64,000 nucleotides of DNA from positions 22,959,915 through 23,023,914 of the forward strand of contig OZ316893.1 of NCBI GenBank assembly GCA_973895155.1, given 5' to 3'. Under the pieces are notes generated by a model. That model was not told the DNA's origin and did not search any database. It saw nothing but the letters and a program-made list of their open reading frames with translations. The position numbers and the translations under genes were made by a program. The stretch is from Marsupella aquatica. Lineage: Eukaryota; Plantae; Marchantiophyta. This document shows positions 22,010 through 60,189 of the stretch, in pieces; the first letter of the stretch is position 1; each line of letters opens with the position of its first letter.

Positions 22010-22458
22010 TAAATAGTGGAGTTGGATTGATTTGGAGAGAGAGATCAAGCAATTTGGACTCCCCAACCACTGGATTCACTAGATGCTCCGCCCAAAGGGA
22101 TCAGATTTTATGAGGCTAAACAGGATTTGGGAGGTTACACTTGGTGAAGCCGACTGGAGCAACATCTGGAAGATCATCTGGACTGCTGATTTATCTACCT
22201 GCTCTAAAACATTCCTTTAGAGAATTTTGGCTCAATCATGGGCTTTAATTCTTTGGATCCAGAGCACTGAAAATTGATAAGTCAAATGGTTCCTATTCGC
22301 TCTGCACGGGGGAGAACAAAACCACCCTTCACATCGTTATCAAATGCAAGCATGCAAAATGTTGTTGGATAACTGCTCATGGATGGCTGAACGGAACCAT
22401 TTCGGCCATGATCTGGGCCTCATCGATCTACTCCTTACTGCCCAGGGGAAAAATCCGC
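22010..22458 (+). pseudogene. L1-type LINE 3' remnant (zf-RVT region), host site of the family-A element
   Basis: WSNIWKIIWTADLSTCSKTFL*RIL... followed by a degraded Cys/His cluster; the sequence resumes after the TSD at 41156. Confidence 0.55.
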
Positions 22459-23353
22459 TGTCACGTTGTCGGCTTCGGCCTTAACTCGGGCTTTGGCCTA
22501 GACGGGCACATCCTTCGTAACAATGAGGGTTCGGGCAGGGAGGGAAGCACGTAATGCACCTAATTTGTGTAAACTAGCGCTAAGTGTGCCTACTGTTAGA
22601 TATGGACACATCCTAGGTATGGTTTGTGTTCCGCCGCCGGAACGTACCTTAGTCGATAGCAGGATCGACCCCGGCTTAAGGGCTTCTAAACCTTTGTGCT
22701 GTCCGCCTTTGATCCGGATTCGATGATATAGGTCCTCAACCCGTGCTCGCAACCACTTACCCGCAAGCTGCACCCCGTGCACAACTCGGGTAGTGCGTTC
22801 GGCCCGGCGTTGTCGCCTATACACGAGATTCACACTTACATATATACGCACAAGCATACAATCTCGATTTACACGAAGGAAATAGTGGGAAAGGATTTTA
22901 CTACAAAGGGGACATATGCGTACACTTGATTGACCCGACAGCCCTGGAGTGAACAGGTTCAAGGCCGAGGGTGTACACTACAACGGAGCCCGGCTCTGCA
23001 CTCGCCCAGCGAGCTTAGTCCTACCCCCTCCCCTTGATACTCTTCCACTCCCAGAGATCGGGACTCCTCGCACATACCGTGGATGTCCAAGTTGAGACTA
23101 AAAACCCCCCTGCCTCTATCGAGGGGTGCACTAAATACTAAGGGCCGAGGAACGGGGTGGCCTTCTGTCCGAAGATTTGCTGACTAAGGTCCTAACTAAG
23201 CTGACTATCAGGCCGAAAAACGACTGTGTCTTATTAGAAGATCCTAATCTACGCAGGCTGGACAGCATGGCAGTGCTGCTGTAACTAAGGCAGGTGCCTA
23301 TCCCAATAGCCTGACTTAGCTATTCCTAACCCTATTCTATTCCTACTCCACCG

Positions 23354-25933
23354 CTAATGTTTGGCACGCTTGCCAGAGCCGCCCGAGTGGGAGCGGTCAT
23401 CCCGCTGCTTGCAAAGTCTATCATTGTCCGACTTGAGGAGCTGGACTTGGTCTAGCAGAGATTCGTTCTCTTGCTTTGCCGCGTCCGTCTCCTCCCTTGC
23501 CTCCTGGAATGCCTCCTCCAGTTGCTGGGCGTCGCTCGTCAGCTTGCCCACCAACTGGTCCTGCTTCTCGGCTTCAGTTTGAAGCCACGCTACCTCGGCT
23601 TGTAGCGTGGCTATCTCCGTAGTGTCCCGCTGGGCCCGTTCTTCGGCCTCCTCCAGGTCTTTCTGCCAGATGACAGTTTGATTCTTCAAACTGTCAATCT
23701 GGGACCGGAGCCGTGAAATTTCGGCCTCGTTCCCAGCCTTGGCCTGTTCTGCTAGGGCGGTAAGGGCTTGCGCCTTTGCTAACAACTCATCGGCGGCTGC
23801 AACCTTGGGTCGTAGTTGCAGAAGCTCAGCCTCTTGAGCTGCCACTTCGTCCTTTAAGTGTACGGACTCCACCCGGTACCGCTCTATCCTCTGAAGGGCC
23901 TCTGACTGGGCCCGACCTGCCTTTACTATGGCAACTAACTCCTGATTGAAGAAACAGGCTACCTTCCGGGCCATGAACTCCCCGGTATCCCGGGAAATCT
24001 GTTGAGAGAAATCTCCCAAAAGCCCGTTCAGAAATGTACCTGGTACGAAGAGTTCTGGGTGGTCCAGGTTGTGTCTGTCCGGATTTGGGCACGGGCAGAC
24101 GTCAACACGTGCGGGGGCCGGGGTAGTGACATCCAGCCTTGGAGACGTAGTGTTGGAAGGGGCTGGAGTGTCCTCCTCCAGCAACGTCCGGTCCTCCGGA
24201 ATAACCCCCGGTGGGTCTTCGGGAAACCCGAGCTCGAGTAAGACCTCCGCGGTCCCGACTTCTGTACTTGGCCTGGCCTGGTTGATTGTATCTACGGCTG
24301 TGATTACCGACCCATCCGGTACCTCCTCGGCCACGGCTACAGCTACCTGTGGGGGTGGGGTGGGTGAAGCATGCATGGCCGTTGGACTTTGGGCCTTGGG
24401 TTGGGGCCGTCTCTCCAAGGCTAGGAAAACCCACCTAGCTGGGACCAGTTCAGTTACGTTGACATGGGGAAGGGTTCGTTGATCAAACCGGGCGTACCAC
24501 TCAAGAATGATCTCGATGTGGCTTGCAAAATACGCCTTTCCGCCGATGTATAACGTCTTTCTTTGCCGCTCCATCTCTTCATGGAATTTCTTAGCGAAGT
24601 ACGCTGCCCACCTCCTAGGTCGATAGTTCTCGACCTGGATAACCTGGGCAGCGGAGATCTCACCCCGGGGTTCCATCATGTGGAGGGCGTACCGTTGGAA
24701 CTCCAGTCGCTCAGCTATCTCGGGGATGAGGCAAGTCCTCATCACGAACCCGTTGTCCACTGATCCCTCGGAGGGAAAACCCGAGGATTGGTACTTGGCT
24801 CCCTTGCCCCCGGGAGCCCGTGATTCGACGCGGTAGTCACCTTCGGGTAACCCAAAGATCATCTTGAGCCTTTCTTCCGTGAGGGACATATTCCTTCCCC
24901 GCAGCCGAGTATGTTGACAGGCATCATCATAATTCTTGACGAATTCCGTCATATCACCCCCGTAGTACCTGCAAGTGTTCCAGGGGAGAGAGGCGAGGTG
25001 CTCGAATCCCTGAGTTTTCAGGTACACCGCATGCTTGGGATGGAGGATGTTTTTATGCACGTTTTCCCCCATGCGGTGCATTGTCACCTTGGCCATGGCT
25101 ACCGTGGCCATGGGTAACCCGGATGCAGCAGCGGGCTCCTTCCTCTTCTTTCCCCGTGACTGGCTCGGGGAGGGTGACACCTCCCCATCCTCTCGATCGG
25201 GTATAGGTAATGCCACCGCCGTTAGTATTGGTACCGGGGCGGCCACGGTCACCGCGTTGTCTACTGGAGCCGCTCCTCGGGGCCGTCTGAGCAAAGGGGG
25301 GGTAGCCTCATCGTCGTCGCTAAGGTCCACAACGTTGATGATGGAGCGCACTTGCACTGGCGGGACGATCGGTGGTGGGGGTTGGCTAGGCAAAGGCTGA
25401 GACTGAAGCTGAGCCTGGGCCTGCGTTGGCGCGGGTACGGGTATGGGGTCGACTGGCCCGGCGCTGGTGGTTGAGGGTCTAGTTCCCATGAAGTTCTGCA
25501 GGTGCTGGCAGAGTAGCTCCGAAGCAAGTACAGAGGGCCTTGTCGAACGGGTAGTGCTGAATGTGCTGTTGATGCTAGCCTGGACCCGAGCAAGGATGTG
25601 GTCGAAGTGATGCCGTTGCACGTTGATCGTGCCCGGGATATTGAAGACTTCGTCCAAAAGTCGAAGCAAAGCTTCCCAGAACCCGATATATTTATCTCCG
25701 TTGAAGAAATACCCTGCTACCTCTTCTGGTCGGTAAAGCTCGATCTGAGACGGGTAGCCAAAGTTAAAGATACAATGGTGTCGTGTTGCTAGGCGGATGG
25801 TTCTCTCGTACTCGCATTCGATTTTGAATCAGCGCGGGTTGGCGTGTTCCAATGAGTCGGCCAAGTGTCTTCCGGTAGACAGGAACTGCGTCCAGAATCG
25901 TAGGGCCGAACTGGAGAGGATCGTGTGCAACAT
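23354..25933 (-). pseudogene. LTR-encoded protein, family A (859 codons, one premature stop)
   Basis: The ATG at 25933 is in frame with the 771-aa ORF; there is a single TGA at codon 35 (25829-25831), which is CGA in the other LTR. Confidence 0.85.
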
Positions 25934-26030
25934 TCAGAGGAGAAAGCAGTGACGACTAAAAGGGAGAGAGCTGGGGTCAAAGCTGGCGTGTGGACTGAAT
26001 GACTGGTGCACTTGCAAAGGATCGGCCCCT

Positions 26031-26037
26031 TTTTATA
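26031..26037 (-). promoter_or_regulatory. Putative TATA box for the LTR ORF (also at 40781-40787)
   Basis: GGGTATAAAAAGGGG on the minus strand about 100 nt upstream of the ATG, conserved in both LTRs. Confidence 0.55.
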
Positions 26038-26372
26038 CCCTGAGAGCTCGTCGATCGCCCGAAGCCTCCTCGTTGCTTATAGGTCGAACCTCTCATGCTT
26101 GTAGTGTACCGGCCACTCCGCTGGTCCGAGTCAGCGCGTGATAGTGGCCGCCTCCCGAAGTTTGTTATACAGACCCGAGGGGGGGGGCAGGGGGCCCATT
26201 ACACGATCGCAACCTGGGCGTGCGAATAGCGACGCGCCGCCAACCCGAACATGAATTCCCTTTATTGACTAATGATTTCCTACTCATAATGGCTACCTAA
26301 ATATTGTCGTTATGCTAATGATAGCGGCCTAAGATACCCCTAATGCGCGTGCTAAGCATGGTTTAGACGGAA

Positions 26373-29300
26373 TCACTCATTACTCGCCGTACCGGCGGCG
26401 TCACATAGCTCCCTGCTTAATTGTGAAGCGTCCTCGCGAACATCACTCTCGGCGTCGTCGTCTTGATGGTGGTACTTCTTTACACGATCATAACTGACTC
26501 GCGTGGGGAGTAAATCGTCGGCGTACGTCGCAAGCTCCAAAGATCCGTTAGGGTAGATCTGATTGACTAGAAAGGGCCCTAACCAACGGGTATGAAGCTT
26601 CCCTGGAAACTGCATGTACCTACTATCGTAGAGAAGGACTAGATCGTCTGTCACGACGTTGACCTTCCGTAGTCTTTTGTCGTGCTGCTTCTTGGAAGTT
26701 GCCTGCTTCATTACGACGTGTCGAGCTGCTAGTAGCCGTGCCTCTTCTAAGGCTTCAATCTGATAAGCTAGGTCTGACGAACTTTCAGGTTCAGGTAAGC
26801 GATCCCGAATGCTGACCCGTGGAGTGTGTACTTCAAACTCGACGGGCACCAACGAATGTTGGCCGAACACGAGAAAGTACGGGCTGTGACTCGTAGTAGT
26901 TTTGTAAGCTAGATTATACGAGTACACCGCTGCGTACAACTTATCATCCCAATCCGTTTTGTGCGTAGCTACAGTTTTGTTGAGGATCTTCCCAATGATA
27001 CCATTTGCTCTCTCTGTCATCCCGTTGGCTTTAGGATGATACGGGGTAGTCTTGCGGTGTTTGACTAGGTAACGCTCTGTAAGCTGGGCTATGGTGTCAT
27101 TGAGGAAGTGCGTTCCACGGTCGCTTACCAATTCTAAGGGCAGTCCGAACCGGGTGAAAATCTGTTCATATAAGAACCTGGCGCTGGTTGCGGTGTCGTC
27201 CTTCACCGTAGCCCGCGCTTTGACCCACTTGGTGGAGTAATCAATAGCTAGCAGGATGTACCTACATCTTTGCCTTCGGGTAACGGGAGTAAACGGCCCG
27301 ATATAATCAATACCCCATTTTTCGAACGGTGCTAATGGAAGCACGGACGTGAGAGGGTGATGATGAGCTCGTCTCGGGGCCCCAGCCCGCTGACACAGGT
27401 CACAGCCCTTGATGAAGTGTTGTACATCCCGATGCAACGTAGGCCACCAATACCCTGAGTCCAGAATCTTTCGGCCTGTCGTGATAGCCGCAAAATGACC
27501 TCCAGCTTCTTCTTCATGCAAGACCCGCATCACGATAAGCGTCTCCTTATACTCCAAGCAGCGTCGTAACTTCCCATTAACTCCTTCCTTATGTAGGTGA
27601 CCCTGTACCTTGACGTAAGGCCCGGATTTCCGTAGAAACACAGCAGCGGCTTCTTGGTTGATGTCGTCAGGGATGCGGCCTGTTAAGAGGAAGGTGATTA
27701 TTGAGCCATACCACGTTGGCGTCCCTGCCCCTACGTGGAACAACTCCTCATCCGGAAAAATATCATCAATTGGCTGATCGACTGGTACGCCGTCCAGCCT
27801 TGAAAAGAAGTTGGCGTTGAGGTGTGCCTTTCCTGGCCAAACCCGAACTTCGTAGTTAAATTCTTGGAGAAGTAGCACCCACCAGGCTATCCGTCCCGTC
27901 ACGTCTGCTTTGTTGACCATGTACTTCAGGCTATCATGATCCGTGTGGAATATGACCTTGTAGCCAAGCAGATAGTGTCGGAACTTCTTACATGAGTAGA
28001 TTATTCCCAGTGCTTCTCGATCCGTGGGGGAATAATTTTTTTGGCTATGAATAATTGACGGCTAGCAAAGTAGATGGGGTGGTCGCGTCCGTCCTTATCA
28101 AGCTGGCTGAGCACAGACCTGATACAGAACCCTGACACATCGACATACACGTGGAACTCCTTATTCCAGTCCGGAGTGACCATGATAGGTGCGGTGGTGA
28201 GTCATTTACGGAGTTCTTCGAAAGCAATCCGTCTCCTGGGTGTCTCCTCGATCATTGCGTCCTTTTTCATCATCTCAGTCAAGGGCAATGTTATTTTAGC
28301 AAAGTCTTTAATGAACCGACGGTAATACCCTACACAGCCCAAGAAGGATCGTACCGCTTTTTGATCCACGGGAAACACCATCGCCATCCAGGCCGCGACC
28401 TTCTCTTGGTCCACCTCGATACCCCGTTTGGACACACGATGCCCGAGCAACACTCCCTCCTCTACCCCGAAGAAGCACTTGGAGGGATGTAGTTTGAGGT
28501 TAACCTCTCGGCATTGTTGCAACATACGTCTTAGGTGTTCGGGGTGCATGGCGACTGTTCCAAAGATGGCGAAGTCGTCGATAAATATCTCCAGAAATTC
28601 CCGTAGGAAATCGTGGAAGATATTCATCATGAGTCACTGAAACATGGCCGAGGCGTTACACAGACCGAAAGGCATTCTCCGAAATGCGAAAGTCCCCCAT
28701 TCCGTAGTGAACGTTGTTTTGAGCTGATCCGAGAGGCGAATCCAGATTTAATTATAACCCAAATACCCGTCAAGGAATGTATAAATTTCATTTTGGGCTA
28801 CCATATCTAGAACCATATCCGTGAATGGTAACGGGTAATGGTCTTTTCGGGTCACGTCGTTCAGCTTACGATAGTCCTGACAGATCCGGATTTTAGGTTT
28901 TCCATCCGTACCTCCCTGTTTTGGTACAATGACAATGGGAGAGACCCAGTCGCTGGCCATTACCGGGTAGATGATATCTGCGGCGAGGAGACGGTCAATT
29001 TCCTCCTTCACTAAGATGGAGTACCTCGGGTTCATGCAACGTTGTCGCTGCCGTACTGCATGGGCCCCCAGATTCAAATCGATCGTGTGTTCTCCTAACT
29101 CGGGGGAGACTCCTGTTAAATCGTGATGGCTCCATGCAAACACATCTTCATATTCCTTGAGCAGAGCTTGGATGGATTTTTCCGCCTCCCCCGTCAGAGC
29201 GTGGCCCAGGTTAAAAGATTTATCCATCCCAATGGTGTACTTCCGGTAGTGCTCCTTCCTGATGACTTCAACTTGGTTCCGCAAGCTCGGGTCCAGGCTC

Positions 29301-32300
29301 TCATCAAGTTCAGCTAACCGAACTCCTCCGTACATGGGTGGAACCGGGATTGGTTTCGGGATTGGAGTTACTTCCTCCAATTGTGGGATGGACGGATCCC
29401 AAGAGACTCGTTTCTTATGTCTCGGTCTCGGGTTTTCGGCCTCGGGCGGTTGTTTGGCTGGTTCGTGGTCACGAGGCTCTGCACTGGTAGAAGCAGCATC
29501 GGCTCCCTGCTTAGCTGGAGCCGTGTCCTCCGTATCGATGAGTCAATTTTGCGTTTCCTCATCCCGGGCAGTAGAAGTGCTCGGGGTGGACTCAACGACA
29601 GACTTTGGGTAATTCAGGAGATGTGTTTTGCAGGTTGCCTCAACTCCAAAGACATCTTCCTCGGACAGGGACGAGATGAGTTCAATCATATTGAGTTCCT
29701 CTTCCTCTGAGGTCTCCGAATCATATTCCTCGGGTCCCTGTGGGGTTTCGCCCTGATAATCGTCCATTGCCCATGATACCCGTACTGTGGGTGTCCCAAA
29801 CCGTAGCTCCTTCTTTCCCAATCCGTGACCACACGGCCACCGTACAGCCACGGCCTGCCTAGGAGGACCGGATAAGAGGAGGGCCGAACCGGCCTCATGA
29901 CTAGGAAGTTGAGATAGAACTCCACCCCTCCTACCAGAGTGAGTACCCGTGTGAGCGTGCCCAATGGAAGAACCCTTGCCCCGTTTGCTAATCTGATAGC
30001 TCGGGCTATGGGTTGATACGTGAGGTATCCTAACTTGACTGACGTTTCTTCAGTCATGATGTTGACTCCCGCTCCTCCGTCTACGAGAACCATCTTGATG
30101 GTACAATTATTAATTTCAATCGAGATGTCCGGCGCTCCCAGGTCCTCGCATATCATGTTGCAATCCGCAATCCCAACTCGGGGTAGTTGCCTCCGTCGTC
30201 AACCCGTAAGCAACTCCCTCAGTTGCCGTCGGTACTGTGGATTGTTTTGCAACAGTTGTCCTACCGTTGCTGTAACCGGGCAACTCTTCACGTCTTCCTT
30301 AATATCATAATCCTCCTTCTTTTCTTCCTTCGGCTGCTGCTTGACTTCCTCTTGCTTTTCTTGCTTTTCTTGCTCCTGTCGCCGGGCGGTCTTGGCTACT
30401 TTGATGTCCTTATCGATTGCCTTCTGGTATTCTCGAGCTTCGTAGGCCTCCAGCTGTTTCTTTACCAATTCTTTGATGCGGGGGAAAAATAGCTTCGGGT
30501 CATCCCAACGGTAGTCATCGTCCTTCTCCGGGGGTATATCTATCGCTGGCTGCACCGGAGTAGTATCTTGCTTTTTCCTGCGTTTCTCCTCCTGCTTCTC
30601 TTCCTTCCGTTCGGCTCTTGTTGACACACGATAGCACTCAGCCTCGTCAGATGGATTAGGGTGTTCCGCCACGTCCACCAGATTCACCCACTTGGTGTTG
30701 TCATCTTGCCATTCCACCGCAATCATTTGGACAACCGCATCACTCGTGGCCGGTCCGTCCTGGGCTGGTCTTGCTGCATTTGTTCGAGCGGCCATTACCA
30801 ATGGATAGTTAGCCGTGGAATGAGCTTCCGTTTTGCAGACTTGACAAAGTGGCGTGCCACGGCCATCCCCCTGGCGTCTTGGTTCTGTGCATTCCCTCGC
30901 AAAGTGGCCTAGCTTCTCACGGTTGTAACAAACCGGGGATCGCCAAATCCCTGGTTTAGGAGGAATGCTAGGGTTACTGATAACTTGGAAGCTTTGGCCA
31001 TTGTTTGGGTAGGGGTACATGCAGTTCTACCTGCTAAGTTACGCGGACCCACCGTTGAAATCTGATACACTGAATCAGGAGGGTCTTCAAAGAAATACTC
31101 CGTGGACTCCGCTTCAGGTCCCGGGTTGTCGACATCATCTAATTCCACCTGGTGAACTCGGTTCTTCCATCTTGGGCATTCTTGCACGACATGCCGGATT
31201 GGAAGCACTTTGAACACCACGCATGGGCTCGGATCTCAGATGGCTTCTTCTTCTCCACCGGCTTTTCCGCGAGATGTACTGACAGTGCTTTGAGGCGATC
31301 CATGATTTCGTTAAGCTTGTCTGCTTCGGCAGTCTTTGGATCGGGTATCGTTCTTCGAGTACGGGATTTGAGTTTCCCCTCCTTCTTAACCCGCCTTTTC
31401 TTCTTCTTGCTCCGGCTCTCACTTTCCGAATCACTTCCTGATGAGCTGGAGGTGGAGGACCCACTGTTCGAAGTTGAATCCGAACTAGATTCCATCTCCG
31501 AACTGGACGAGGTCGAACGATGTTTCTTCTTCTTCTTGCGTTTCTTCTTCTTCTTGTCGTCTGATTTGGAGTCACTGTCACTGAAGGTCTCGTACTTGCC
31601 CGCTGGTCCCGTATATGTGGACTCCCGGTAGGTTTTGGCGCACGCTATGGCCGCTTGCATTGAAATTGGATTATTCTGGCGCACCCAGAATTGCATATTC
31701 GTGGGCAAACCATGGAGGAACCATGTAAGCTGGAGTGCGTCACCCGGCCTGAGCCGTATCTTGGCAGCAAGTTTATGAAACTTCTGGATGAACTTTTGCA
31801 GGGACTCCTTTTTTCCCATGCGAAGCTGGCCGATCTTTAATAAAGAGCGCTGCTCGGATCCAATAGCACAAAATTCTTGCAGCAACGCAGCTTGGAATTG
31901 TGCCCATGTAGTCCCGGGTGGTAGCGAGTTGTACCATGGACGAGCTTCTCCCCGCATCACTCCAGGGAGGACGGTTAGCTTAATGGCGTCTTCCCCGTTA
32001 GCCTTAGCAGTGGCTTCAAACTCATCCAACCATTCATCCGGATCATCCCCATGATGCCCTTTGAAAGGTCGATAATGAAACCGCGATCATTGCAATATTT
32101 ATGGAGGAGCTTGGGCAGTGCGGGCCATTGGTGGGGCGGCTGCCATAGGTGGTGGCGGTGGTGGCGCAGGAACCGCAGTAGGACCGGTCGAACCGGACCC
32201 CGAAGGTCCTGGTGGTATGTTCATTTGTCGGGGGGATTGCGAGTCCTTCGAGCTAGAAGAGTCAGAGCTTGTTGGGGTTGCACTTTCTCGTTCGCTGGTC

Positions 32301-32341
32301 AATCTCCTCAAGTAAGCTGCTTGAGAACGAGTGACGGGCAT
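26373..32341 (-). pseudogene. Gypsy gag-pol of family A (several stops and frameshifts)
   Basis: Gag (DPDEWLDEFE, GEARPWY), three CCHC-like knuckles, protease VDGGAGVN, RT FIDDF, RNase H VDVSG/TDH, integrase HHCC plus WGID..SDRG..GMTE and a GPF module. The integrase stop lies inside the 3' LTR. Confidence 0.93.
26409..26418 (-). other. Polypurine tract
   Basis: AAGCAGGGAG-CTA immediately before the TGTGA start of the 3' LTR; short and imperfect. Confidence 0.55.
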
Positions 32342-32434
32342 TTACTCGTGTAAATGCAATGGTTAGTACTAGGGCCTGGTGTATTCTGCCCAGGCGAATA
32401 CGCACATGTCTCCCCTCTACGATATGTAGAGTGC

Positions 32435-32452
32435 CCCCTCCATCTAGCGCCA
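32435..32452 (-). other. Primer binding site, tRNA-Asn type
   Basis: TGGCGCTAGATGGAGGGG, 13 nt after the 5' LTR. It differs by one base from the complement of the plant tRNA-Asn 3' end as I recall it (CCCCTCCTTCTAGCGCCA). Confidence 0.7.
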
Positions 32453-32666
32453 AAAACAAAGGCTATGTCACGTCGTCGGCTTCGGCCTTAACTCGGGCTT
32501 TGGCCTAGACGGGCACATCCTTCGTAACAATGAGGGTTTGGGCAGGGAGGGAAGCATGTAATGCACCTAATTTGTGTAAACTAGCACTAAGTGCGCCTAC
32601 TGTTAGATATGGACACATCCTAGGTATGGTTTGTGTTCCGCCGCTGGAACGTACCTTAGTCGATAG

Positions 32667-35600
32667 TGTGATGCCTAGCCAGGAATCACTGGACTAGTTT
32701 AAGTGGGAAAAGGGAAGTGTACCCTAGAAACACCTTAGTATAGTTACGAAAATAAGGAAAATATAAACAATTAAGGGTGACTATGGAACCCAAGCCGAGG
32801 CCGGAAGTAAGGACGCCGGGGGAGAGAACACGATTAGGGTTAGGGCACGCTAAGTGCCGGCGGCTAGGGGTAACCAACGGGAGGGAGAACCAGAGGAGGA
32901 GAGGGGTAAGGACCGCTCGCGAGGAATAGTGGCTCATTTGCAAGCACGAACTGGGCAGGTGACTACGGGCGACCAACTACTATCAACTGCTTAGGCAAGC
33001 ACTCAGGGTGGGAGCAGATACCGACTATCAACTCGAGAAGGGTATGAGCAACGTCAATCAAGTGGCACATTTTTGGGGATGCTTGTTCGAACGGGCAACT
33101 GAGTACATTGGGATTTACGAGGACAAAGAATCAGAGAGAGCTTCTCGAGAACGGCAGGAGCTCGCTCGATTGTGGGAGCTACATAAAGCTGCCTTCTTAG
33201 GAGGAGAACTCATCAAGGCCGAATTCTTGTGGACTCCTACTGGTAACGAGCTAGACAACCTGCTGTTTTGCGAAGACCGAATCGTCGGCATCCGCGAAGC
33301 CATCAAACGCTGCAACGACATACACTGGGAGTTGAAGGGTAGCACGGAGGGGTGGACGAAGGCAACCGTGCTAGGAGAGACATCCACGGCAGCCGAGATG
33401 AAGAGGAAGGGAAACAACAATGAAGAGGCCACCCCGGAAAAAAGAACGAGGTTGGCGGCACCAAAGAAACCAGCCAAACAGCAGAGCAGGAGGCAGAGAG
33501 AAGCCGAGGAGGAGGAGGTCGACCCCATCAACGTTGTTCCAATGAGAGATGACACCTAGAAAGGCTGGGCGGTGATCCTCCCCGAGGAGGTTCAATTACA
33601 CTTTGCAAGGGAGGAGGATGCATGCTTTACGGCTATGCAGACTCGGAAATACCAGGGCTTCATGGCCGGATCCAGCTTGGAAACCTTCGTAAAGTTACTA
33701 TGGCTGAAGCCGGAGGTGCCGGATTCAGACTTACTAGAATTTGTGGGATCATGGGAGTCCGAGACCAATTCCACAAGGGTGTATGGGAAGGATTTCTATC
33801 TCACTCCCCAGGTGATTGCCGAAGTATTTGCCTTGCCGATGGGCAATAAGACCAAGGTAGATACCAGGAAGACCTGGCCAGACAAGGAGTTTTGGTTGTT
33901 TCCAGGGCCTTCAACAAAGAATGGCTTCTTCCGTAACACCTGCACTAACCCGCATATAGGAGAGATGATCGATTTCTTGCGGGTGACCATGCATTGCAAC
34001 TGGCCAAGAGCAGAGATCGGCAAGGCACAGGTCTATCTGGCAGAGAGGCCAGACCCAAGCCGGGACTACAACGGTTACCTCCTCACTCAACTAAAGAAGA
34101 TCTTGAAGGAGGAACAGCTGGTGATCGGCAAGGGAAGCGTGTCCCGGCTTGGCTATCACATGCCGCTATTGTGCCGGTATGCCCGAAGTAAGACCTTTGC
34201 CCGGTACTTCCCCTACAAGCAAGGGCACCGGAGGAGGTTCCAGAATAGAGGCCGGCAACTGAGAAACCCAACCCGCCCGACAGTCCTACAATCGAGCAGG
34301 TGTTTAGGCCAAGGACGGAGGACTTGCCGATGCAGCAACCAGGCATGCAGAATCTGCTGAAATTGCTGGAAAAGGAAAAGAGAACGGCAACGGCAACGGC
34401 AACGACGACCGCAATAGCACCAATACAGGACACTGCTCCAGAGGTAGGACTAAGCCGTCTTACAAGGGAAAACCCCTTTACTAGAGCCAAGGAGAGAAGG
34501 AGGCCGGAACACGAGCCGAGAGTCCGGATGTATGTAGGAGCCTCAAGTCCCGAAGCCGAGGAGAAGCAACCCGTAGCTCCCGGCCACGACAAGGAGAACA
34601 AGAGATCAACACGGAAGCCGGAGGAGGAACCAAGACCAGTGATAGGTGAAGCCGGGTTCACGACAAAACCAGGAGAGCAGCGGGAGAAGCCGGTAGTCCA
34701 AGCCAAAGAGGAGGCGGCGGAGGACTACAGCAATGATAACTCCGGCTACAGGTCGGATCATCATGTTCCAGGAGTAAGGACCTGTGGCCGGTTCATCCCC
34801 ATGCTCCCAAGAGTAGTTCGAGGGGACCCAACCCAGCAGAGCAGCCCCGAGTCTCCCCCACCAGATGTCGCTCCCCCGAGCTTTGACGGCATAAAACAGA
34901 CGGCACAGGAATTTTAGGAGTGAATCAGGGAGGAAGAGGAGGCAGCCCTGGCTAGGGAGAAGGATTTACCAGGAGGAGAATGGCCAGAGAACATCAGGCG
35001 CCTTGCAGAAAAATGAAGCAGCCCTCCGGCCACGATAGAAGAGATCCGCAAGGCGGCTTGGGAACAAAGGCCACGATGGATGATGCCGATGACTTCTACT
35101 TCCTCCACCTATGCTAAAGAGAGAGCCATGGAGTACGGGGAGATATGTGGAGAACTGGCGCTCAGCATCTTTGGGGAAGAGTTGGAGCAAGGACCCTTTT
35201 TTCAGAGGGAGATGTTGGAGAAGCGCCAATTAGAAGAAGCGGTGGCTTTGGAAAGAAGCAAGAAGGATGAGGTCATCCGTCGGCTTAGGGCAAGGGAAGC
35301 TGAAATTGAAGACCTAAGGGCGGCCAAGAAAGCCCAAGATGAGCTGCGGATTAAGCGGCATGAGCTAAATATCATGTAGGGCCAGTTGGATACCGCATAG
35401 TCTGATAATCGGATTATCGAGAATAAACTGACGCGGACCCAAGGAGAGTTGGCCGATGCGATCAAGGAGCGGGAGAAGTGGAAGCGAGAGCTGAGGGATG
35501 CAGAGGAGGCCCACATAACAGCCAACAACCGGGCCATGGCGGAGACCCAGCGAAGGGAAAGGGCATTAAAGGGGGAGCTCAAGGATATCCGCGGAGCCCT

Positions 35601-37411
35601 TGAGCAGAAGGAGGCCGAGTTAGGGAAATCCTATCGAGGGATTATTCTGCTACAGCAGGAGCTTGCATCCCTGACGGCCAGCTTCAAGGCCGACCTGCGT
35701 GAGAAGGACAATATGCTTGATCAGACTTACGCCAAGATGAACCAGATGGAGTTTGTCATCATTGCAGAGCTCGACAAGGAGTTAAGAGCAACCCGGGAGG
35801 AGAGAGCTGCGTTAAAGAAGGAGCTGGAGGAAGCCCACAAGGAGCTGGAGGAAGCCCAGAAGGAGCTGGAGGAGGCGCACAAGGACCTGGACAAAGTGCA
35901 GGAGGAGTTGGAGGAAAGCACGCGGAAGCTAGAGAACTTGCAACGGCGAGCCGACAACCAAACGGAGCGACTGAAGAAACAAGCCGCAGTATTTAAATGC
36001 TTGGCTTCATCAGGCCCAACTCCAATTGGGGCCACCATGTTACCAGGAGTGGTACTGGCCGAAGGACAAGCCGCACCACTTGCACCAGTGCCGGAAGTAA
36101 GTGGGAAGGGGAAGGGGCCAGCTGCCGAACCAGAGAAGAAGAAGAAGCGGAAACCTTCTGGGTCAAGGAGTAATACGGCTCCACAGGCCGAGGTGACCAA
36201 GGAGGTAAACCCAGCACCGACCTCAGGCAGGGTCACGGCAGAGGATCCAACTACCCTAGGAGAAGGGGATGACGAAGCCGAGGCCAGGATACTCGGTAAT
36301 GAAGCCGAGGCTGATGCTGATGCCGAAGCCGAGGCTGATGCCGAAGCCGAAGCCGAAGGTGGACCCAGTCAGGCCGATGGAGAGTTGACTCAGTCCAGGG
36401 CAGGTAATCTGTCAGAGAACAAACCTACGGCAGTGGCTGAGGAGGAAGCATTGGGGGCGTCCACTGAGGAACAGACACCGCTGCCATGACGGTGGTGGAG
36501 GGCCACTCCTTTCAAGGAGGGCGGACGTGGAGGGAGGTGACGTGAGTGGGCAGGGCGGGCTCAGATCTCTAAGTTTAGGATTAGGATTAGGATCAGGACC
36601 AGGAGGCGGCCCTAACACTTAGCTTAGTGGGATTGCGGTTCCACTGGTAAGAGCAACACTTGTACTCCTGCCTCGCTGTACATAGGTAGATTCAGTTAGG
36701 TAGATTACAGTTAGGTAGATTAGGCTTACGCTGCAAGGAATTAGGCGGATCCACTACCAGGATAAGTACCTGGGCAGCGAGGAGCTCGGGGCCTCTTCTT
36801 TAGCAAGTTTTTAGTTGCACCAGCCAGGCTGGGATCAAGTAGTAAGAAAAGCTCTCGGTTAGTCATACAGTGACCCTTGTGTATATTCATGTTTCCTCAT
36901 GCCTAAGAGCTGAATAGAGTTGGCCTCATGGCTTAGTTCGCAGAGCTTGTGTATGAGATGTACTGTTTGTATGGCAAGTGCATGGTATGACTCAGTCAGA
37001 AGGAGTCATTTTGCTATTTTTGTATCGCATTAACTTGTGTGAAGAGTGCCCACATCAACTAATAGATGAAGGAAAGTAAGCAAGGGAGTGAGAGTTGGAT
37101 GTGTCGAGCTGACAGAGGTCTTAGCGGCTTAACCAAGCCTATTGGGGATCATTCCGGCGGCGGAATCCAAATATACCTAACCAGAAGGAGGGGAAGACAA
37201 GGGAAGGCCTAGATTAGGCCGGCTACGTATCTCATGACCCGATGAAGGATCTGTCCAGTATATGTGTGTAAAATGTTAATAGTAGTAGTTGGAAGTTAGC
37301 AGCGTCCCATGCCGCTAAGCCACAAAAACGGCCTCGCCAAGCGCGAAACCTACGGGAATCGGCTTGTGCAGGGGGGTTTCTTGGGTTTAGGGAGTCATGG
37401 GACGCACCACA
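32667..37411 (+). mobile_element. Family-B unit, probable solo LTR (4745 bp) with internal ORF
   Basis: TGTGATGCC...GCACCACA with perfect TSD GATAG (32662-32666 / 37412-37416); no gag or pol; collinear with 49761-54390. Confidence 0.9.
33044..36489 (+). pseudogene. LTR-encoded protein, family B copy 1 (several stops and one frameshift)
   Basis: ORF pieces 33008-33559, 33572-34200, 34300-34917, 35080-35379 and 35449-36489 tile the protein of copy 2. Confidence 0.85.
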
Positions 37412-38110
37412 GATAGCAGGATCAACCCTGGCTTAAGGGCTTCTAAACCTTCGTGCTGTCCGCCTTCGATCCGGATTCGATGATACAGGTCCTCAACCCG
37501 TGCTCGCAACCACTTACTCGCAAGCTGCACCCCGTGCACGACTCGGGTAGTGCGTTTGGCCCGGCGTTGTTGCCTATACACGAGATTCACACTTACATAT
37601 ACACGCACAAGCATACAATCTCAATTTACACGAAGGAAATAGTGGGAAAGGATTTTACTGCAAAGGGGACATATGCGTACACTTGATTGACCCGACAGCC
37701 CTGGAGTGAACAGGTTCAAGGCCGAGGGTGTACACTACAACGGAGCCCGGCTCCACACTCGCCCAGCGAGCTTAGTCCTACCCCCTCCCCTTGATACTCT
37801 TCCACTCCCAGAGGTCGGGACTCCTCGCACATACTACGGATGTCCAAGTTGAGACTAAAAACCCCCCTGCCTCTACCGAGGGGTGCACTAAATACTAAGG
37901 GGCGAGGAACGGGGTGGCCTCCCGTCCAAAGATTTGCTGACTAAGGTCCTAACTAAGCTGACTGTCAGGCCAAAAAATGGCTGTGTCTTATTAGAAGATC
38001 CTAATCTACGCAAGCTGGACAGCATGGCAGTGCTGCTGTAACTAAGGCAGGTGCCTGTCCCAATAGCCTGACTTAGCTATTCCTAACCCTATTCTATTCC
38101 TACTCCACCG

Positions 38111-40683
38111 CTAATATCTGGCACGCTTGCCAGAGCCGCCCAAGTGGGAGCGGTCATCCCGCTGCTTGCAAAGTCTATCGTTGTCCGACTTGAGGAGCTG
38201 GACTTGGTCTAGCAGAGATTCGTTCTCTCACTTTGCCGCGTCCATCTCCTCCGCTGCCTCCTGGCATGCCTCCTCCAGCTGCTGGGCGTCGCTCGTCAGC
38301 TTGCCCACCAACTGGTCCTGCTTCTCAGCTTCAGTTTGAAGCCGTGCTACTTTGGCTTGTAGCGTGGCTATCTCCGCAGTGTCTCGCTGGGCCCGTTCTT
38401 CGGCCTCCTCCAGGTCTTTCTGCCAGATGACAGCTTGATTCTTCAAACTGTCAATCTGGGACCGGAGCCGTGAAATTTCGGCCTCGTTCCCAGCCTTGGC
38501 ATGTTCGGCTAGGGCGGTAAGGGTGTGCACCTTTGCTAACAACTCATTGCCGGCTGCAACCTTGGGTCGTAGTTGCAGAGCTCAACCTCTTGAGCCGCCA
38601 CTTTGTCCTTTAAGTATACAGACTCCACCCGGTACCGCTCTATCCTCTGAAGGGCCTCTAACTGGGCCCGACCTGCCTTTACTGCGGCAACTAACTCCTG
38701 ATTGAAGAAACAGGCTACCTTCCGGGCCATGAACTCCCCGGTATCCCGGGCAATCTGTTGAGAGAAATCTCCCAAAAGCCCGTTCAGAAATGTACCTGGT
38801 ACGAAGAGTTCTGGGTGGTCCAGGTTGTGCCTGTCCGGATTTGGGCACGGGCAGACGTCAACACGTGCGGGGGCCGGGGTAGTGACATCCAGCCTTGGAG
38901 ACGTAGTGTTGGAAGGGGCTGGAGTGTCCTCCTCCAGCAACGTCCGGTCCTCCGGAATAACCCCCGGTGGGTCTTCGGGAAACCCGGGCTCGAGTAAGGC
39001 CTCCGCGGTCCCGACTTCCGTACTTGGCCCGACCTGGTTGATCGTATCTATGGCTGCGATTATCGACCCATCCGGTACCTCCTCGGCCACGGCTACAGCT
39101 ACCTGTGGGGGTGGGGTGGGTGAAGCATGCGTGGCCGTTGGACTTCGGGCCTCGGGTTGGGGCCGTCTCTCCAAGGCCGGGAAAACCCACCTAGTTGGGA
39201 CCAGTTTAGTTATGTTGACATGGGGAAGGGTTCGTCGATCAAACTGGGCGTACCACTCAAGAATGATCTCGATGTGGCTTGCGAAATACACCTTTCCGCC
39301 GATGTATAGCGTCTTTCTTCGCTGCTCCATCTCTTCATGGAATTTCTTAGCGAAGTACGATGCCCACCTCCTAGGTCGATAGTTCTTGACCTGGATAACC
39401 TGGGCAACGGAGATCTCACCCCGGGGTTCCATCATGTGGAGGGCGTACCGTTGGAACTCCAGTCGCTCAGCTATCTCGGGGATGAGGCAAGTCCTCATCA
39501 CAAACCCGTTGTCCACTGATCCCTCGGAGGGAAAACCCAAGGATTGGTACTTGGCTCCCTTGCCCCCGGGAGCCCGTGATTCGACGCGGTAGTCACCTTC
39601 GGGTAACCCGAAGATCATCTTGAGCCTTTCTTCCGTGAGGGACATATTCCTTCCCCGCAGTCGAGTATGTTGACGGGCATTGTCATAATTCTTCACGAAT
39701 TCCGTCATATCATCCCCGTAGTACCTGCAAGTGTTCCAGGGGAGAGAGGCGAGGTGCTCGAATCCCTGAGTTTTCAGGTACACCACATGCTTGGGATGGA
39801 GGATGTTTTTATGCACGTTTTCCCCCATGCGGTGCATTGTCACCTTGGCCGCGGCTACCATGGCCATGGGTAACCTGGATGTAGCAGCGGGCTCCTTCCT
39901 CTTCTTTCCCCGTGATTGGCTCGGGGAGGGTGACACCTCCCCATCCTCTCGATCGGGTATAGGTAATGCCACCGCCGTTAGTATTGGTGCCAAGGCGGCC
40001 ATGGTCACCGCGTTGTCTGCTGGAGCCGCTCCTTGGGGCCGCCTGAGCAAAGGGGGGGTAGCCTCATCGCTAAGGTCCACAACGTTGATGACGAAGTGCA
40101 CTTGCACTGGCGGGACGATCGGTGGTGGGGGTTGGCTAGGCAGAGGCTGAGACTGAAGCTGAGCCTGGGCCTGCGTTGGCGCGGGTACGGGTATGGGGTC
40201 GACTGGCCCGGCGCCGGTGGTTGAGGGTCTAGTTCCCATGAAGTTCTGCAGGTGCTGGCAGAGTAGCTCCGAAGCAAGTACAGAGGGCCTTGTCGAATGG
40301 GTAGTGTTGAACGTGCTGTTGATGCTAGCCTGGACCCGAGCAGGGATGTGGTCGAAGTGATGCCGTTGCACGTTGATCGTGCCCGGGATATTGAAGACTT
40401 CGTCCAAAAGTCGAAGCAAAGCTTCCCAGAACCCGATATATTTGTCTCCGTTGAAGAAATACCCTGCTACCTCTGTTGGTCGGTAAAGCTCGCTCTGAGA
40501 CGGGTAGCCAAAGTTAAAGATACAATGGTGTCGTGTTGCTAGGCGGATGGCTCTCTTGTACTCGCATTCGATTTTGAATCGGCGCGGGTTGGCGTGTTCC
40601 AATGAGTCGGCCAAGTGTCTTCCGGTAGACAGGAACTGCGTCCAGAATCATAGGGCCGAACTGGAGAGGATCGTGTGCGACAT
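38111..40683 (-). pseudogene. LTR-encoded protein, family A, 5' LTR copy
   Basis: ATG at 40683; TGA at codon 12 (CGA in the other LTR); 692-aa open stretch; frameshift near 38578. Confidence 0.85.
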
Positions 40684-41559
40684 TCAGAGGAGAAAGCAGT
40701 GACGACTAAAAGGGAGAGAGTTGGGGTCGAAGCTGGCGCGTGGACTGAATGACTGGTGCACTTGCAAAGGATCGGCCCCTTTTTATACCCTGAGAGCTCA
40801 TCGATTGCCCGAAGCCTCCTCGTTGCTTATAGGCCGAACCTCTCACGCTTGCAGTGTACCGGCCCCTCCGCTGGTCCGAGTCAACGCGTGACAGTGGCCG
40901 CCTCCCGAAGTTTGTTATACGGACCCGAGAGGGGGGGGCCCCCGCCCATTACACAATCGCAACCTGGGCGTGCGAATAGCGATGCGCCGCCAGCCCGAAC
41001 ATGAATTCCATTTATTGACTAATGATTTCCTACTCATAATGGCTACCTAAATACTGTCATTATGCTAATGATAGCGGCCTAAGATACCCCTAATGCGCGT
41101 GCTAAGCATGGTTTAGATGGAATCACTCATTACTCGCCGTACCGGCGGCGTCACATCTGCTAAACTCATTATGGACCTCCTTGCTTTACCAAGTCCTATG
41201 GAGTATCTGGCTTGCACAAAACAGGCAGGCCTTTGATCTATCCAAAAACATAATTTTTGACCAGATTCTTATCTTTTCAGTTACCTTGGATCACCTCAAC
41301 GCAATGTAAGTTTCTGCTGGATCAACCCGGAGACAGGCTTGCCTTGCTGGTGCTAGAATGCTACTACAATAGGAACAAATAAGGATTCTCAGCAGTGGCC
41401 CCAGAAGTCTTATTTCTGATTAAGATACTATATTTTCCTTCCTTATTACATTCTCTGCAATAGCATAGACGGTACACAACTACAGTTTAGAAACGTACAC
41501 AACTACTTAGAAACGTAGTGGCCATGGGCTCTCCTGACTACACTAGGTACTTAGGGACA

Positions 41560-44230: not shown

Positions 44231-47200
44231 TCAGTTGACCCCGGCGTGGCAACTGGCATGGCAGAAGGCATGGAGCCCAAGACGCTCATCAGGCCTCGCT
44301 GCTGTTGCCACGGCCGTTGCCTGATGCTCCCTTCAGAAAACTGCCCTTTTTCCAGTCCACATCATCTCGCTCGCGGCCGTTCAGTCCAGGCATTTTGCCC
44401 TCACGCATGGCCAAAGCCAACACGCACAACCTGACGCAGGTGCAGCTCATAAACCTCTCGCACGGCCAAACCCTGAAGTGCAACACGCCAGGCCCCTCCC
44501 ATTTGCCAGTACACTCCCCATTCCCTTTGTATTTCTGGGTTCGAGGCCAAAATATGGGCGGGTAAAGTGGTCTGGGGGTCGCAGGACCCCAGAAGCATAT
44601 ATAATGAGGGTGCATTGTTCTCGGAGGTCATGGGGAATGGATAATTACCACAGCTTGCATGACGGCTTTTGCTAACCAGTTTTGGGGGGAATGGCTTGGG
44701 CGACCATTCTTTTGGGGGAATTTTACAGTGTTCAGGGTGACCACCATGGGTGATGGCTTGGGTGATGGCTTGGGCATCATTTGGGGGGATTTGGACTTCA
44801 TGGCAAGCACCATGGTTAATGGCTTTGGTGACCACTTTTTTTTCCCTCAATGGGTGACGGGCAAACCATGGGCCATGAGAGGGGGTGAGCCAGACCATGG
44901 GATGGGTGACCGCCAGCCATGGGACTGGGTGTCGGCAAAACCATGGGTGACAACTGCCGCAAGCAATAAGAATATTGTCATAGGGGCAAGAGACATTCGA
45001 AAGCGCAATGATCGCCTTGAAGGTTGGGAGGGTGAGACAAGGGGTCCCGGTAAGCAGTATCCTCGACAGATATTGGGACCCCATCAAAGTCTCAAGTCTC
45101 TTGCATTGGTGTGGCCCAGCTGACGTTCAATATATAGTTAGGGGTCTGTCGAGCTTGAATGAATTTGGATTTTAAGAAATAATCATATGTTTTGTGGGTT
45201 GGATGCAGATGATTAAAGGGGTTGAACATTTTTGGGCAACATGATAACTCCGGGGGAGAGATCAGAGTTTAATTGCGAGCGATATGCTCAGAACAAGGAT
45301 GCCATAAATGCAAGGCGTCGGCAACGATACGCCCAACAATGGTTGCAAGGTGGGAATGGTGTGCACCAGGTCCATGCCGCACCCGAGCAAAGTGTCTCGT
45401 CCAGTGTGGGGCCCTCGGTTTCTACAGTACTTCCCACACCATGTGTGCCAACTACTGTAGAAGAACTGAGGGCCATTAGTGGCAGACAATTGCGACGGGA
45501 AGCAAGAGCTGTATGAGGGGCATCAATTAACAACATCATTGCCCCCCATTGAGGAGACAACTTTGGGACCTACTACAGTGCCTGGCCGTGCAAGTAGTGT
45601 GAGACAATTGCTTCGTGAAGCAAGGGGGATGCACCAAGCATTGGCCAGATCCATGGCAATGAGGGCCAGTCGAGACGGTGCCAGTGGTGCCTTGGATGCA
45701 TGTGAGATTGACCACCCTTTGGAGAAATTTGTGCCTACCCGTCCATGTGAGCCCGTAGCCAACAATGAGCCCAGAGATCCCAATGTCTTTGATGAGGATT
45801 GGCTCATTCATGGAGCTTTACAGGATGGAGCTGACTCGATGTGTGTCATCCCTACCTGTGAAGCGATACCAAACAGTGTATGATCTGACCCTGACATCTT
45901 TGACGAGAATTGGCTCATTGATGGTGCCTTGCATGGGGAAGCGGGTCCTATTGTTGATGATGGTGGTGGTCACTTTGACACGTTTATTGAGGGCACCTTA
46001 CGTTTGTCAGATGAAGAGGGGGAACAAGAGATTGAGGATATCCTCCAACAAGAATTGGGAGGGAGTAACCTTGCACCGGTTACACCGGCTCAACCCAGTG
46101 CAGAAGATATTTTGAGAGAGCGTCAAAGATTGGAGAAAATACAAAGTTTGCCAAAGGCACGACAACCTTTGGATCCTTTGATTGGTCGACACGTTTTGGG
46201 ACGGATGAACATTGAGTGTCCATGTTGTAAAGCTCTTCATTGGATTGAAGAGTGCAAGTCTGGAACACAACACCCTCCGTGCTTCACGATGTGTTGTGCC
46301 GATGGGAAGGTGGATTTGCCTCCAATTGGTGCTCCTCCAAAGCCTTTGCGGAGTTTGTTGACTGGAAGTAACGCTGCGGCTACAACATTTTGGAAGAATA
46401 TTAGAGGGTACAATAATGCCTTGGCTTTTACATCGATAGGTGTTAAAATTGATGAAAGGGGGGGCAACCAGGGTCCGTATTCATTTCGCATACAAGGAGA
46501 TTTATATCATCGGGCCGACAGCCTCTTGCCGCCTGATGGAGAGGGTCCCAAGTTTTCTCAACTCTATATTCATGACATGGGGAATGAGTTGGGCAACAGG
46601 TATTTTGCACATTCAACTTGAACCATCTTCCTCTTATGATGCATTTTTGTTTGCAATAAGTTGAGTCTCATTGGATTTTATGTTGGGTTGCAGGATGAAT
46701 CACATGCCGCAGTTGGATGAGGCGGTGCTTGCTTCTTTGCAAGAAATGCTCCATATCCACAACCCTTATGTGCAGATGTTCAAAAATGCCGGGAGCCGCA
46801 TTGATGACGTTGAGGTGCCAGAGGTTTTGCTGCGTATTGTAGCTGAACGTGTGTCGCGCCCCTAACCTGGGCCTTAAATCCAGTTTAGTTCCATGGCGCA
46901 ACCTCGACCACCAGTAGGGATGAGGGTTCGGGCAAGGAGGTGTGTAGTGGGCCCGATTAGCCCTAAGTCGGGTTAAGTCGATATACTTACTGGTATAACA
47001 CTTGCGCAATTCATACTAGTCATAGGTATATTTGTTTTCCACCGCTGGAATATTCCCTCAGTTAGTGACTCGGACTAACTCTCGGCTTGGGGCTTTTCAA
47101 GCCATCGACGCGACAGGACCTTGTGACATACAATGGGTGGCAATCCCTACCATTAGTCCGCACCCGGTACGTCCCTTAAAATGGTGCCTTTGCCCAGACA

Positions 47201-56451: not shown

Positions 56452-56749
56452 CTCGGGGGTTTTCACTTCCACAAAAATGGCATATCACGTGCGACGAAGG
56501 ATAGGGTCATTTTATTGGTTCTAAGGGAAGACTTAAGAATTTTTGTAGAAGAACAATAGGGTCTTTTAAATTCAATTTTGACACTTATAAGAACATTAGG
56601 GTCTTTTTAATCCAATTTTTGGAATATTCCAAGAATATTCCAACTTTATAGGGGTTAAAAAATTAAAAAAAATTCTTACATTTTAGGGGGTCCGAGGCCT
56701 AAAAACGTCACAGGCGATGGGGAGGTCCTCATATAGTGAGACCCCCGAG
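56452..56749. mobile_element. MITE, 298 bp, with 8-bp TSD, inside the Helitron Rep domain
   Basis: TIRs CTCGGGGGTTTTCACT / AGTGAGACCCCCGAG and TSD CATCGAGA on both sides; same family as 12840-13134. Confidence 0.93.
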
Positions 56750-59835: not shown

Positions 59836-60189
59836 CGTGCAACGCACGGGCATGGGGCTAGTAAACACATAATTGCATTGCGATAGCCTAGGTGAGAGCA
59901 AGAACAATTGTACTTGAGAGTACAATTATGAATTATACTAGATTGTCCTTTTTACTTTCGCATGGGGATTACAACTCTACAAGGGTGAGTTATTATATTA
60001 TACTCTCATCTCATAAAGATAAACCACTATACAAAGATCAGGGAGAAGGTAGGGAGAAATTGGCATGGAGGAAAAGAAGGGTAGTCCTAGATAAAGGAGA
60101 TTTAAAGGAACACAAATTGAGGAAAAGAAAAATGAAAATGGTATGAAAAATAAAAAAGAGTAAAAAGTGAGATACTTTTGTATTTCCTA

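Follow-up and report, generated by a model that had tools for sequence, protein, structure and literature searches.

Accessory open reading frames (ORFs) that lie within or overlap a long terminal repeat (LTR) or its U3 part, and are duplicated on reverse transcription, are familiar from animal retroviruses, namely the sag gene of mouse mammary tumour virus, nef of human immunodeficiency virus and the genes of foamy viruses. In the liverwort Marsupella aquatica, a stretch of 64,000 nucleotides (assembly GCA_973895155.1, contig OZ316893.1, positions 22,959,915 to 23,023,914; here called the window) holds a Ty3/gypsy retrotransposon whose two LTRs each enclose the same 859-codon ORF. The retroviral proteins are shorter and unrelated, whereas ORFs of 860-1200 codons occupy two thirds of a 4-kb plant LTR at this locus.

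Additional ORFs of plant retrotransposons have been placed in the internal region (Vicient and Casacuberta, 2020; PMC7264820). The domains listed for the extra ORFs of Athila, Ogre and Retand elements are Transposase_32 (PF20167), Athila ORF-1, PMD (PF10536) and Transposase_28 (PMC6317226; PMC7264820; PMC11728184; PMC11963269), PF20167 being reported in an Athila extra ORF (PMC11728184). The Marsupella ORF resembles these in its remote domain kinship, in the sense orientation of the 3′ ORFs and in a coiled-coil (SMC-like) region. Theirs, however, are internal and occur once per element, whereas here the ORF is in the LTR, occurs twice per element and is kept by solo LTRs; the interior consists only of gag-pol and the protein has no clear membrane segment. 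In rice, Retrosat2, RIRE3 and RIRE8 are similar in their long LTRs (>3 kb) and in an extra ORF0 under selection, but theirs is described as lying upstream of gag-pol and is not placed in the LTR (PMC3485330).

A further relative comes from DNA transposons. VANC21 of Arabidopsis VANDAL elements (MuDR; PDB 9LNJ/9LNK) is likewise a transposon-encoded accessory protein, and VANC proteins bind short DNA motifs in the non-coding parts of their transposon and remove methylation (PMC5735166). The predicted core fold of the LTR-encoded protein is like that of VANC21, which also has a coiled coil (PMC13547354), as predicted here. In contrast to VANC21, the protein (12% identical to it) is encoded in a gypsy LTR rather than a DNA transposon, and no tandem family-specific target motif was found. 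The DUF1985 folds of PMD and VANC proteins have been linked, and retrotransposon-encoded PMDs noted (10.1101/2024.09.27.615353; PMC13547354). A search of mostly openly accessible papers found neither a report placing such a domain or ORF inside a retrotransposon LTR nor one of a VANC-like retrotransposon protein, although such ORFs could be listed among the 5′ or 3′ eORFs in the supplements of Neumann 2019, and the available portions of the Apopellia genome paper mention no LTR ORF (PMC12885004). What is new at the locus is how known parts are arranged: plant elements carry such domains in their interiors, and here a probable one lies in the LTR.

The element, representing what is here called family 1, lies on the minus strand, as do its parts listed below; coordinates are those of the window. 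Self-comparison of the window showed that the repeat at 22459-26405 recurs at 32466-32666 plus 37412-41155, and alignment of the ends delimits a 3′ LTR of 3947 bp (22459..26405, TG..CA) and a 5′ LTR interrupted by a nested insert, with a 3′-end piece at 32466..32661 and a main piece carrying ORF copy B at 37412..41155. With the insert removed the LTRs are 3947 and 3940 bp long, and 165 of the 3940 columns in their alignment show a difference (4.2%; Kimura two-parameter distance 0.044; 95.8% identity), the repeat boundaries of a preliminary description of the locus agreeing with this alignment. The differences are distributed evenly over the length, the only gaps being one of 6 nt and one of 1 nt. 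In element sense both LTRs begin TGTGAC and end GTGACA. Short true LTRs within the 4-kb unit were considered and rejected, as no internal direct repeat was found at its ends. The target site duplication (TSD) is of 5 bp with one mismatch, TCCGC on the left (22454..22458, plus strand) and TCTGC on the right (41156-41160).

A primer binding site (PBS)-like sequence, TGGCGCTAGATGGAGGGG (32435..32452), lies 13 nt past the 5′ LTR and may match tRNA-Asn. It shares only TGGCGC with the tRNA-Asp PBS of the Athila-type element FIDEL, whose PBS offset is 10 nt (PMC2844528), and so departs from the tRNA-Asp priming of Athila. The polypurine tract (PPT; 26409..26418) is weak: 10 nt with nine purines, 3 nt ahead of the 3′ LTR, and no pure purine run of eight or more was found in this region. 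It overlaps the end of the integrase frame, which passes through it and ends about 10 codons within the 3′ LTR. The interior starts TAGC and ends GCTA (26406-26409, 32462-32465), so that the inverted ends of the LTRs extend four bases inward, possibly by chance. Between the LTRs, a decayed gag-pol with several stops and frameshifts (26373..32222) runs from a gag start about 245 nt after the 5′ LTR to an integrase end at the PPT, in the gypsy order of gag, zinc knuckle, protease (identified by its DGGAG motif rather than through Pfam), reverse transcriptase (RT), RNase H (RH) and integrase. The spacing from RH to the integrase zinc finger is about 109 aa, no extra RNase H was found among the internal ORFs scanned, and the whole element measures about 14 kb.

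The ORF lies wholly inside each LTR, oriented as gag-pol is, and starts at LTR nucleotide 473. Copy A (23354..25933) comprises 859 codons with a premature stop at codon 35; copy B starts at ATG 40683 and is broken by a stop at codon 12 and, near codon 704, by a frameshift of 1 nt. A TATAAAA box (26031..26037), found in family 1 only, lies 104 nt upstream of the ATG. These results bear out the preliminary description, which had reported the same long ORF in both repeats, bounded by TG..CA, TSD, PBS and PPT, its ATGs at 25933 and 40683 about 100 nt past a TATAAAA, and different disabling changes in the two copies. In three sequencing runs, 96-100% of the depth carries another base at the codon-35 stop, so the stop is private to copy A, and the three indels listed for 25560-26480 among run contigs all fall upstream of the ATG.

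The decay of the two copies has the character of methylation damage. Transitions between the LTRs fall largely in CG (83) and CHG (37) contexts, together 120 of 145; the family therefore faces methylation. By the Nei-Gojobori method, with codons containing stops or gaps left out, the dN/dS of the element's own LTR pair is 0.95 (confidence interval (CI) 0.59-1.71), as in neutral decay, and this pair serves as a neutral control under the same methylation-driven mutation. The ORF was intact when the element inserted, as had been proposed, and its copies decayed afterwards, mostly at CG and CHG sites. Between insertions the ratio is far lower: 0.39 (CI 0.27-0.65) for copy A against a third, partial family-1 copy in the window (copy C, below), and 0.38 in the other comparison, both over codons ~326-859. 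For the ORF of a second family it is 0.25 (0.21-0.30) as a whole; by region, the core has 0.10 (0.05-0.17), the coiled coil 0.20 and the tail 0.58. Control values were 0.98 and 1.33 for shifted frames, and the non-coding 3′ part had 0.71 (0.44-1.38). The ORF is under purifying selection between insertions.

The edge of the LTR was judged from contigs of public sequencing runs, which show multiplicity rather than independence, one run (X1) being possibly the source sample. In X1 the flank bin has a summed depth of 188 and the bin from 22457 onward one of 87,105; across the whole 3′ LTR the depth is 42,000-180,000, against 28,000-95,000 in the interior, depth not being copy number. At 26405, 25 contigs from X1 and 14 from a second run (X2) leave the LTR for mutually dissimilar sequence (agreement 0.39 and 0.41), a pattern expected where many inserted LTRs begin. 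The two outcomes that the preliminary description had raised against its own view, short true LTRs with a local duplication and a neutral ORF with dN/dS of about 1, were thus not what was seen: other copies share the 4-kb LTR edge, and selection acts between insertions. Its central proposal, an accessory gene built into the LTR, is supported on both counts, and the LTR-resident ORF is almost certainly a real gene.

Two further families in the window have the same organization. The insert within the 5′ LTR is a solo LTR of family 2 (32667..37411, plus strand; 4745 bp, TG..CA, perfect TSD GATAG), whose homologous ORF, about 1100-1200 codons long, has decayed. A second family-2 solo LTR (49761..54390, plus strand; 4630 bp, TSD CTTCC) has an ORF extending to 53469 with one premature stop. 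It is itself nested in a family-3 solo LTR (46852..55334, minus strand; 3848 bp net of the insert, TSD ACGTG), which has inserted in a Helitron Rep gene and whose decayed homologous ORF starts at 54781. All three solo LTRs, of 3.8-4.7 kb, have perfect TSDs. The ORFs of families 2 and 3 match the family-1 protein at 25-30% in tblastn, with core identities of 40, 26 and 24%, and the LTR DNA of the three families is unalignable save for short motifs near the 3′ end. All share a common plan of a 370-550 nt leader, the ORF and a 900-1060 nt trailer. With three families within 64 kb, the LTR-resident ORF is a lineage trait in the source genome. The preliminary description had the 4-kb LTRs right but overlooked that the 4.7-kb insert is a solo LTR with a homologous ORF, and it also missed the second family-2 solo LTR, the third family and copy C.

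Several observations attach to these copies. At 26397-26442, where depth peaks, loose ends in X1 connect the start of a family-2-like LTR with this same PPT region and with an end resembling that of integrase; from these joins, family 2 probably has full-length gag-pol elements sharing the family-1 PPT. At 49876 (plus strand), 116 nt from its LTR start, the second family-2 LTR has an extra in-frame ATG 86 codons before the aligned methionine, and this stretch is broken in the other family-2 copy. Copy C (3943..6642, minus strand) is a deleted element of 205 bp of pol and the 3′ 2.5 kb of an LTR. Its pol piece (6438-6642) is 99% identical to the full element and its LTR part 95%, perhaps through conversion or by chance. 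A splicing origin for its pol-LTR junction was rejected, the junction not being GT-AG.

The protein begins with a domain of about 125 aa (25559..25933) bearing an FW motif just past the start methionine, conserved in the three families and in database homologues and without a Pfam match. A profile built from six database N-termini, searched in a six-frame set of the window and fetched loci, detects those of all three families (E 1.6e-15 to 2.4e-5), and the start methionine stands 4-12 residues ahead of the shared FW motif. From the profile matches and this spacing, ATG 25933 is the likely start. Then follow a core of about 200 aa (24485..25087) and a C-terminal acidic, proline-free stretch, probably a coiled coil, with a basic KRAK tail (23400..23860). 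Outside the N-terminal domain and core there are two linkers rich in proline, the acidic helical region near the C terminus and patches of basic residues (KKRK and KRAK), of which the KRAK tail is a possible nuclear signal. No clear membrane segment was found, the best 19-aa hydropathy (1.8) lying in a proline-rich linker, which makes an env role unlikely.

Homologues were found through the core. A word-index search with residues 1-520 returned none, and an exhaustive search with a core profile returned 91 among 1.84 billion proteins. The liverwort Calypogeia fissa, with entries named 'unnamed protein product', accounts for eight of the 20 ranked homologues looked up, and at least nine of its homologues are annotated as unnamed proteins. 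The 906-aa homologue P0215 is 29% identical over 884 columns, an end-to-end match to the open 824 residues, and shares the coiled-coil and basic-tail layout at its C terminus. At the protein level the ORF is conserved in all three families of the window and in other genomes. The possibility that accession numbers would place Calypogeia homologues beside pol was dropped, since a single pair six numbers apart, on contigs of equal length, is too weak to show an LTR location. The core profile gave no loci among JGI metagenome contigs. An integrase query detected 21 distant loci at 28-45% identity; in the sequence examined, no LTR pair and no credible core match accompanied any of them. The query found none among viral contigs.

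Sequence profiles and structure prediction point the core in one direction. A Pfam scan of the window's proteins gave only weak coiled-coil matches, with no DUF1985/DUF287 or Transposase_32 match. Among 50 homologues, eight matched Transposase_32 (PF20167) at 17-32 bits against a cut-off of 45, and one matched DUF1985 below cut-off. ESM Atlas returned only unnamed Streptophyta clusters at 0.89-0.91, and clusters with PMD in 14% of members and DUF1985 in 13% at 0.87-0.88, which is no more than a lead. An earlier core fold from five sequences was unusable (predicted local distance difference test, pLDDT, 36); the AlphaFold model from 62 sequences reached pLDDT 96.6 and a predicted template-modelling score (pTM) of 0.91. 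The protein has no sequence match in the PDB. With this model, the top PDB row in Foldseek is VANC21 with its target DNA (probability 0.97, template-modelling score 0.51, E 0.035), the next having a probability of 0.02. VIA-align of the core against VANC21 gave Z 8.2, and an independent scan of 48,161 chains gave VANC21 Z 8.1 (190 of 201 residues, root-mean-square deviation 3.9), with the next at 2.3 (2.3-2.5). Taken absolutely, a Z of about 8 is moderate, but it is well clear of all other matches and accords with the Pfam and Atlas leads. Among viral folds there was no clear match. The core is predicted to be a remote Transposase_32/DUF1985/PMD-type domain with the VANC21 fold.

The pol of the element resembles liverwort proteins. 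Its best named matches are Calypogeia fissa proteins, to which RT-RH is 65-68% identical. In a quick tree of 43 rows (41 of 120 pol matches, hand-chosen, plus two window rows, with no lineage-labelled references) RT-RH clusters with the Calypogeia proteins at SH-aLRT 99, separately from the rows of seed plants. These relatives by themselves point to a liverwort as the probable host. Paired TG..CA repeats with TSD, PBS and weak PPT, and the gag-PR-RT-RH-INT order (PR, protease; INT, integrase), make the element Ty3/gypsy. Members of the Tat clade (TatI-III, Ogre, Retand) have an additional archaeal-type RNase H, which was not found here among the internal ORFs scanned. In this the element is like Athila, and it differs from Athila in having no long region with a sense extra ORF separating pol from the 3′ LTR. 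It shares with Phygy and Selgy a polyprotein spanning nearly the whole interior (PMC6317226). Those, however, are short and without extra ORFs, unlike this ~14-kb element with an LTR ORF; Phygy prefers NCGN target sites, and the TSDs here are TCCGC, GATAG, CTTCC and ACGTG. The element is classified as non-chromovirus-like gypsy only, falling outside Tat, Athila and Phygy as those are described.

Taken together, the gene is most likely an accessory gene of PMD/DUF1985/Transposase_32 type in the LTR, encoding a putative DNA-binding factor with an anti-silencing or transactivating role. The best overall explanation, a VANC-like accessory gene housed in the LTR and acting in trans, is given a probability of roughly 0.55. 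The predicted order of N-terminal domain, proline-rich linker, VANC-like core, linker, coiled coil and basic tail suggests a nuclear oligomer, which would bind DNA, recognise the family's own sequence and counter silencing or activate transcription in trans. The gene would most likely lie in U3, where the first 370-550 nt would supply a promoter of its own and the TGTA-rich stretch past the ORF stop the poly(A) signals, so that one copying from the 3′ end of the genomic RNA places it in both LTRs. The simplest origin would be the capture by U3 of a 3′ extra ORF in sense orientation as plus-strand priming shifted to the integrase end. The overlap of the PPT with the integrase end would make the gene the positional equivalent of the Athila-type sense extra ORF with shifted priming. 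A relic second PPT past the ORF stop was looked for and rejected, there being no distinctive purine run. Solo LTRs would keep the gene, since the cassette is complete within one LTR.

Several points weigh against this reading. Every ORF copy in the window is broken, and no full-length family-2 or family-3 element was seen there. Selection on codons 1-104 of family 1 is weak in a small sample of 17 shared differences, six synonymous and 11 non-synonymous, among the top 40 listed rows. The core is only 12% identical to VANC21 and the Foldseek E is not significant. The TATA box is not conserved in families 2 and 3, so that it is no more than a candidate promoter of the gene. All six non-coding LTR parts show an excess of TTAG(G/T) on their sense strand (57 against 23.3, z 7.6, null maximum 4.3), ATTAGG (13 against 1.5) and TTAGTCA are likewise enriched, and TTAG is not enriched in 12 control blocks. 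The excess, however, is shared across families, and TTAG is equally dense after the integrase in three of 12 distant loci without an ORF match; it thus does not argue for self-recognition. The non-coding LTR parts yielded no target motif specific to one family, and the VANC21 and VANC6 motifs were absent in the target-motif search. The same fold occurs in the host proteins MAIN and MAIL1, which act in silencing (PMC13547354; 10.1101/2024.09.27.615353), so the fold does not show function. VANC is held to be dicot-specific and derived from MAIN-like proteins (PMC13547354), and anti-silencing activity therefore need not be ancestral.

These points leave room for a real accessory factor that is not an anti-silencer. 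A chaperone of nucleic acids, a factor for nuclear import or for the targeting of integration, or a repressor that limits the element itself, as MAIN/MAIL1 might, would fit a PMD/DUF1985 fold common to silencing and anti-silencing proteins and the want of a family-specific motif, and nuclear and retrotransposition roles are listed for extra ORFs (Vicient and Casacuberta, PMC7264820). Such a role is a serious contender, if a less probable one, as the sole solved structural relative is a DNA-bound, transposon-encoded anti-silencer and an independently expressible cassette borne by the LTR would suit a factor whose action must precede transcription of the element. A DNA-binding anti-silencing or transactivating role, judged from the modelled fold, is slightly favoured.

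Where the gene sits within the LTR is a separate matter. It could instead lie in a very long R of about 3.2 kb, a promoter near LTR nucleotide 370 serving either a short ORF mRNA, ending at the poly(A) site of the 5′ LTR, or a read-through genomic RNA, with Gag needing splicing or internal initiation. The best TATA (nucleotide 369 in both LTRs) is upstream of the ORF, none is clear downstream of it (one TATATA, in copy A only), and a TGTA-rich, poly(A)-like cluster occupies nucleotides 3420-3580. Yet a long R would require strong-stop DNA of about 3.5 kb and an 860-codon ORF ahead of gag, the TATA varies among families, and the copy C junction lacks GT-AG. Moreover, a motif common to all three LTR families, TTCC-N6-GGAA...ATACCTA (22614..22642, minus strand), lies 184-270 nt from the LTR 3′ end and could be a downstream promoter or replication signal. 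A hairpin reading of this motif was discarded, being lost in two of five copies. A long R thus seems the less probable placement, and U3 has a modest advantage. Lastly, a local duplication or independent mobile cassette flanking a gag-pol fragment, or a neutral passenger ORF, might be read from the weak PPT, the 13-nt PBS offset and the TSD mismatch, but is very improbable and already largely refuted by TG..CA ends with the TSD outside and PBS, PPT and complete gag-pol inside, a 10-nt offset in Athila-type FIDEL (PMC2844528), the dissimilar flanks into which many contigs continue past the LTR edge, and dN/dS far below 1 beside a neutral internal control.

Further features lie elsewhere in the window. 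A more distant ORF fragment at 13162-14215 (plus strand) matches a broadened core profile weakly (E 6e-4, in a small set) and has a coiled-coil-like tail; no LTR ends were identified for it, and a 307-bp repeat, also at 56448-56757, precedes it. A second gypsy pol (1606-4209, plus strand; RT-RH-INT start), about 58% identical to family 1, is interrupted by copy C at 3943 and is sister to family 1 and the Calypogeia proteins in the tree. The decayed Helitron Rep/helicase that hosts family 3 with its nested family 2 (45884-59240, plus strand) was recognised by motif, and its Rep frame continues across the family-3 TSD. A decayed Ty1/copia gag-PR-INT (60102-62666, minus strand) was likewise recognised by motif. 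Positions 5-234 hold a fragment 93-94% identical to the 3′ non-coding part of the family-2 LTR, and short tandem arrays lie at 63358-63659 and 59342-59835 (periods of ~27/81 and ~180 bp).

What extra ORFs do in plant non-chromovirus retrotransposons has been asked for a long time (PMC7264820), and this case links one extra-ORF family to a solved VANC21-DNA structure, giving a concrete, testable hypothesis. LTRs and solo LTRs, usually treated as non-coding, can each carry a gene of 860-1200 codons, which annotation pipelines would call an orphan host gene, and formation of a solo LTR would not remove the element's regulator. A bolder and rather doubtful proposal is that a gypsy lineage of liverworts built a VANC-like anti-silencing gene into its LTR as a self-contained unit, solo LTRs forming a dispersed reservoir that de-silences full-length copies. 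If this is true, LTR-LTR recombination, the host's usual route of deletion, leaves an intact trans-activator behind, and the VANC fold serves the anti-silencing system of a retrotransposon far from the eudicots. The locus bears on whether anti-silencing use of the VANC fold is older and wider than the MuDR elements of eudicots.

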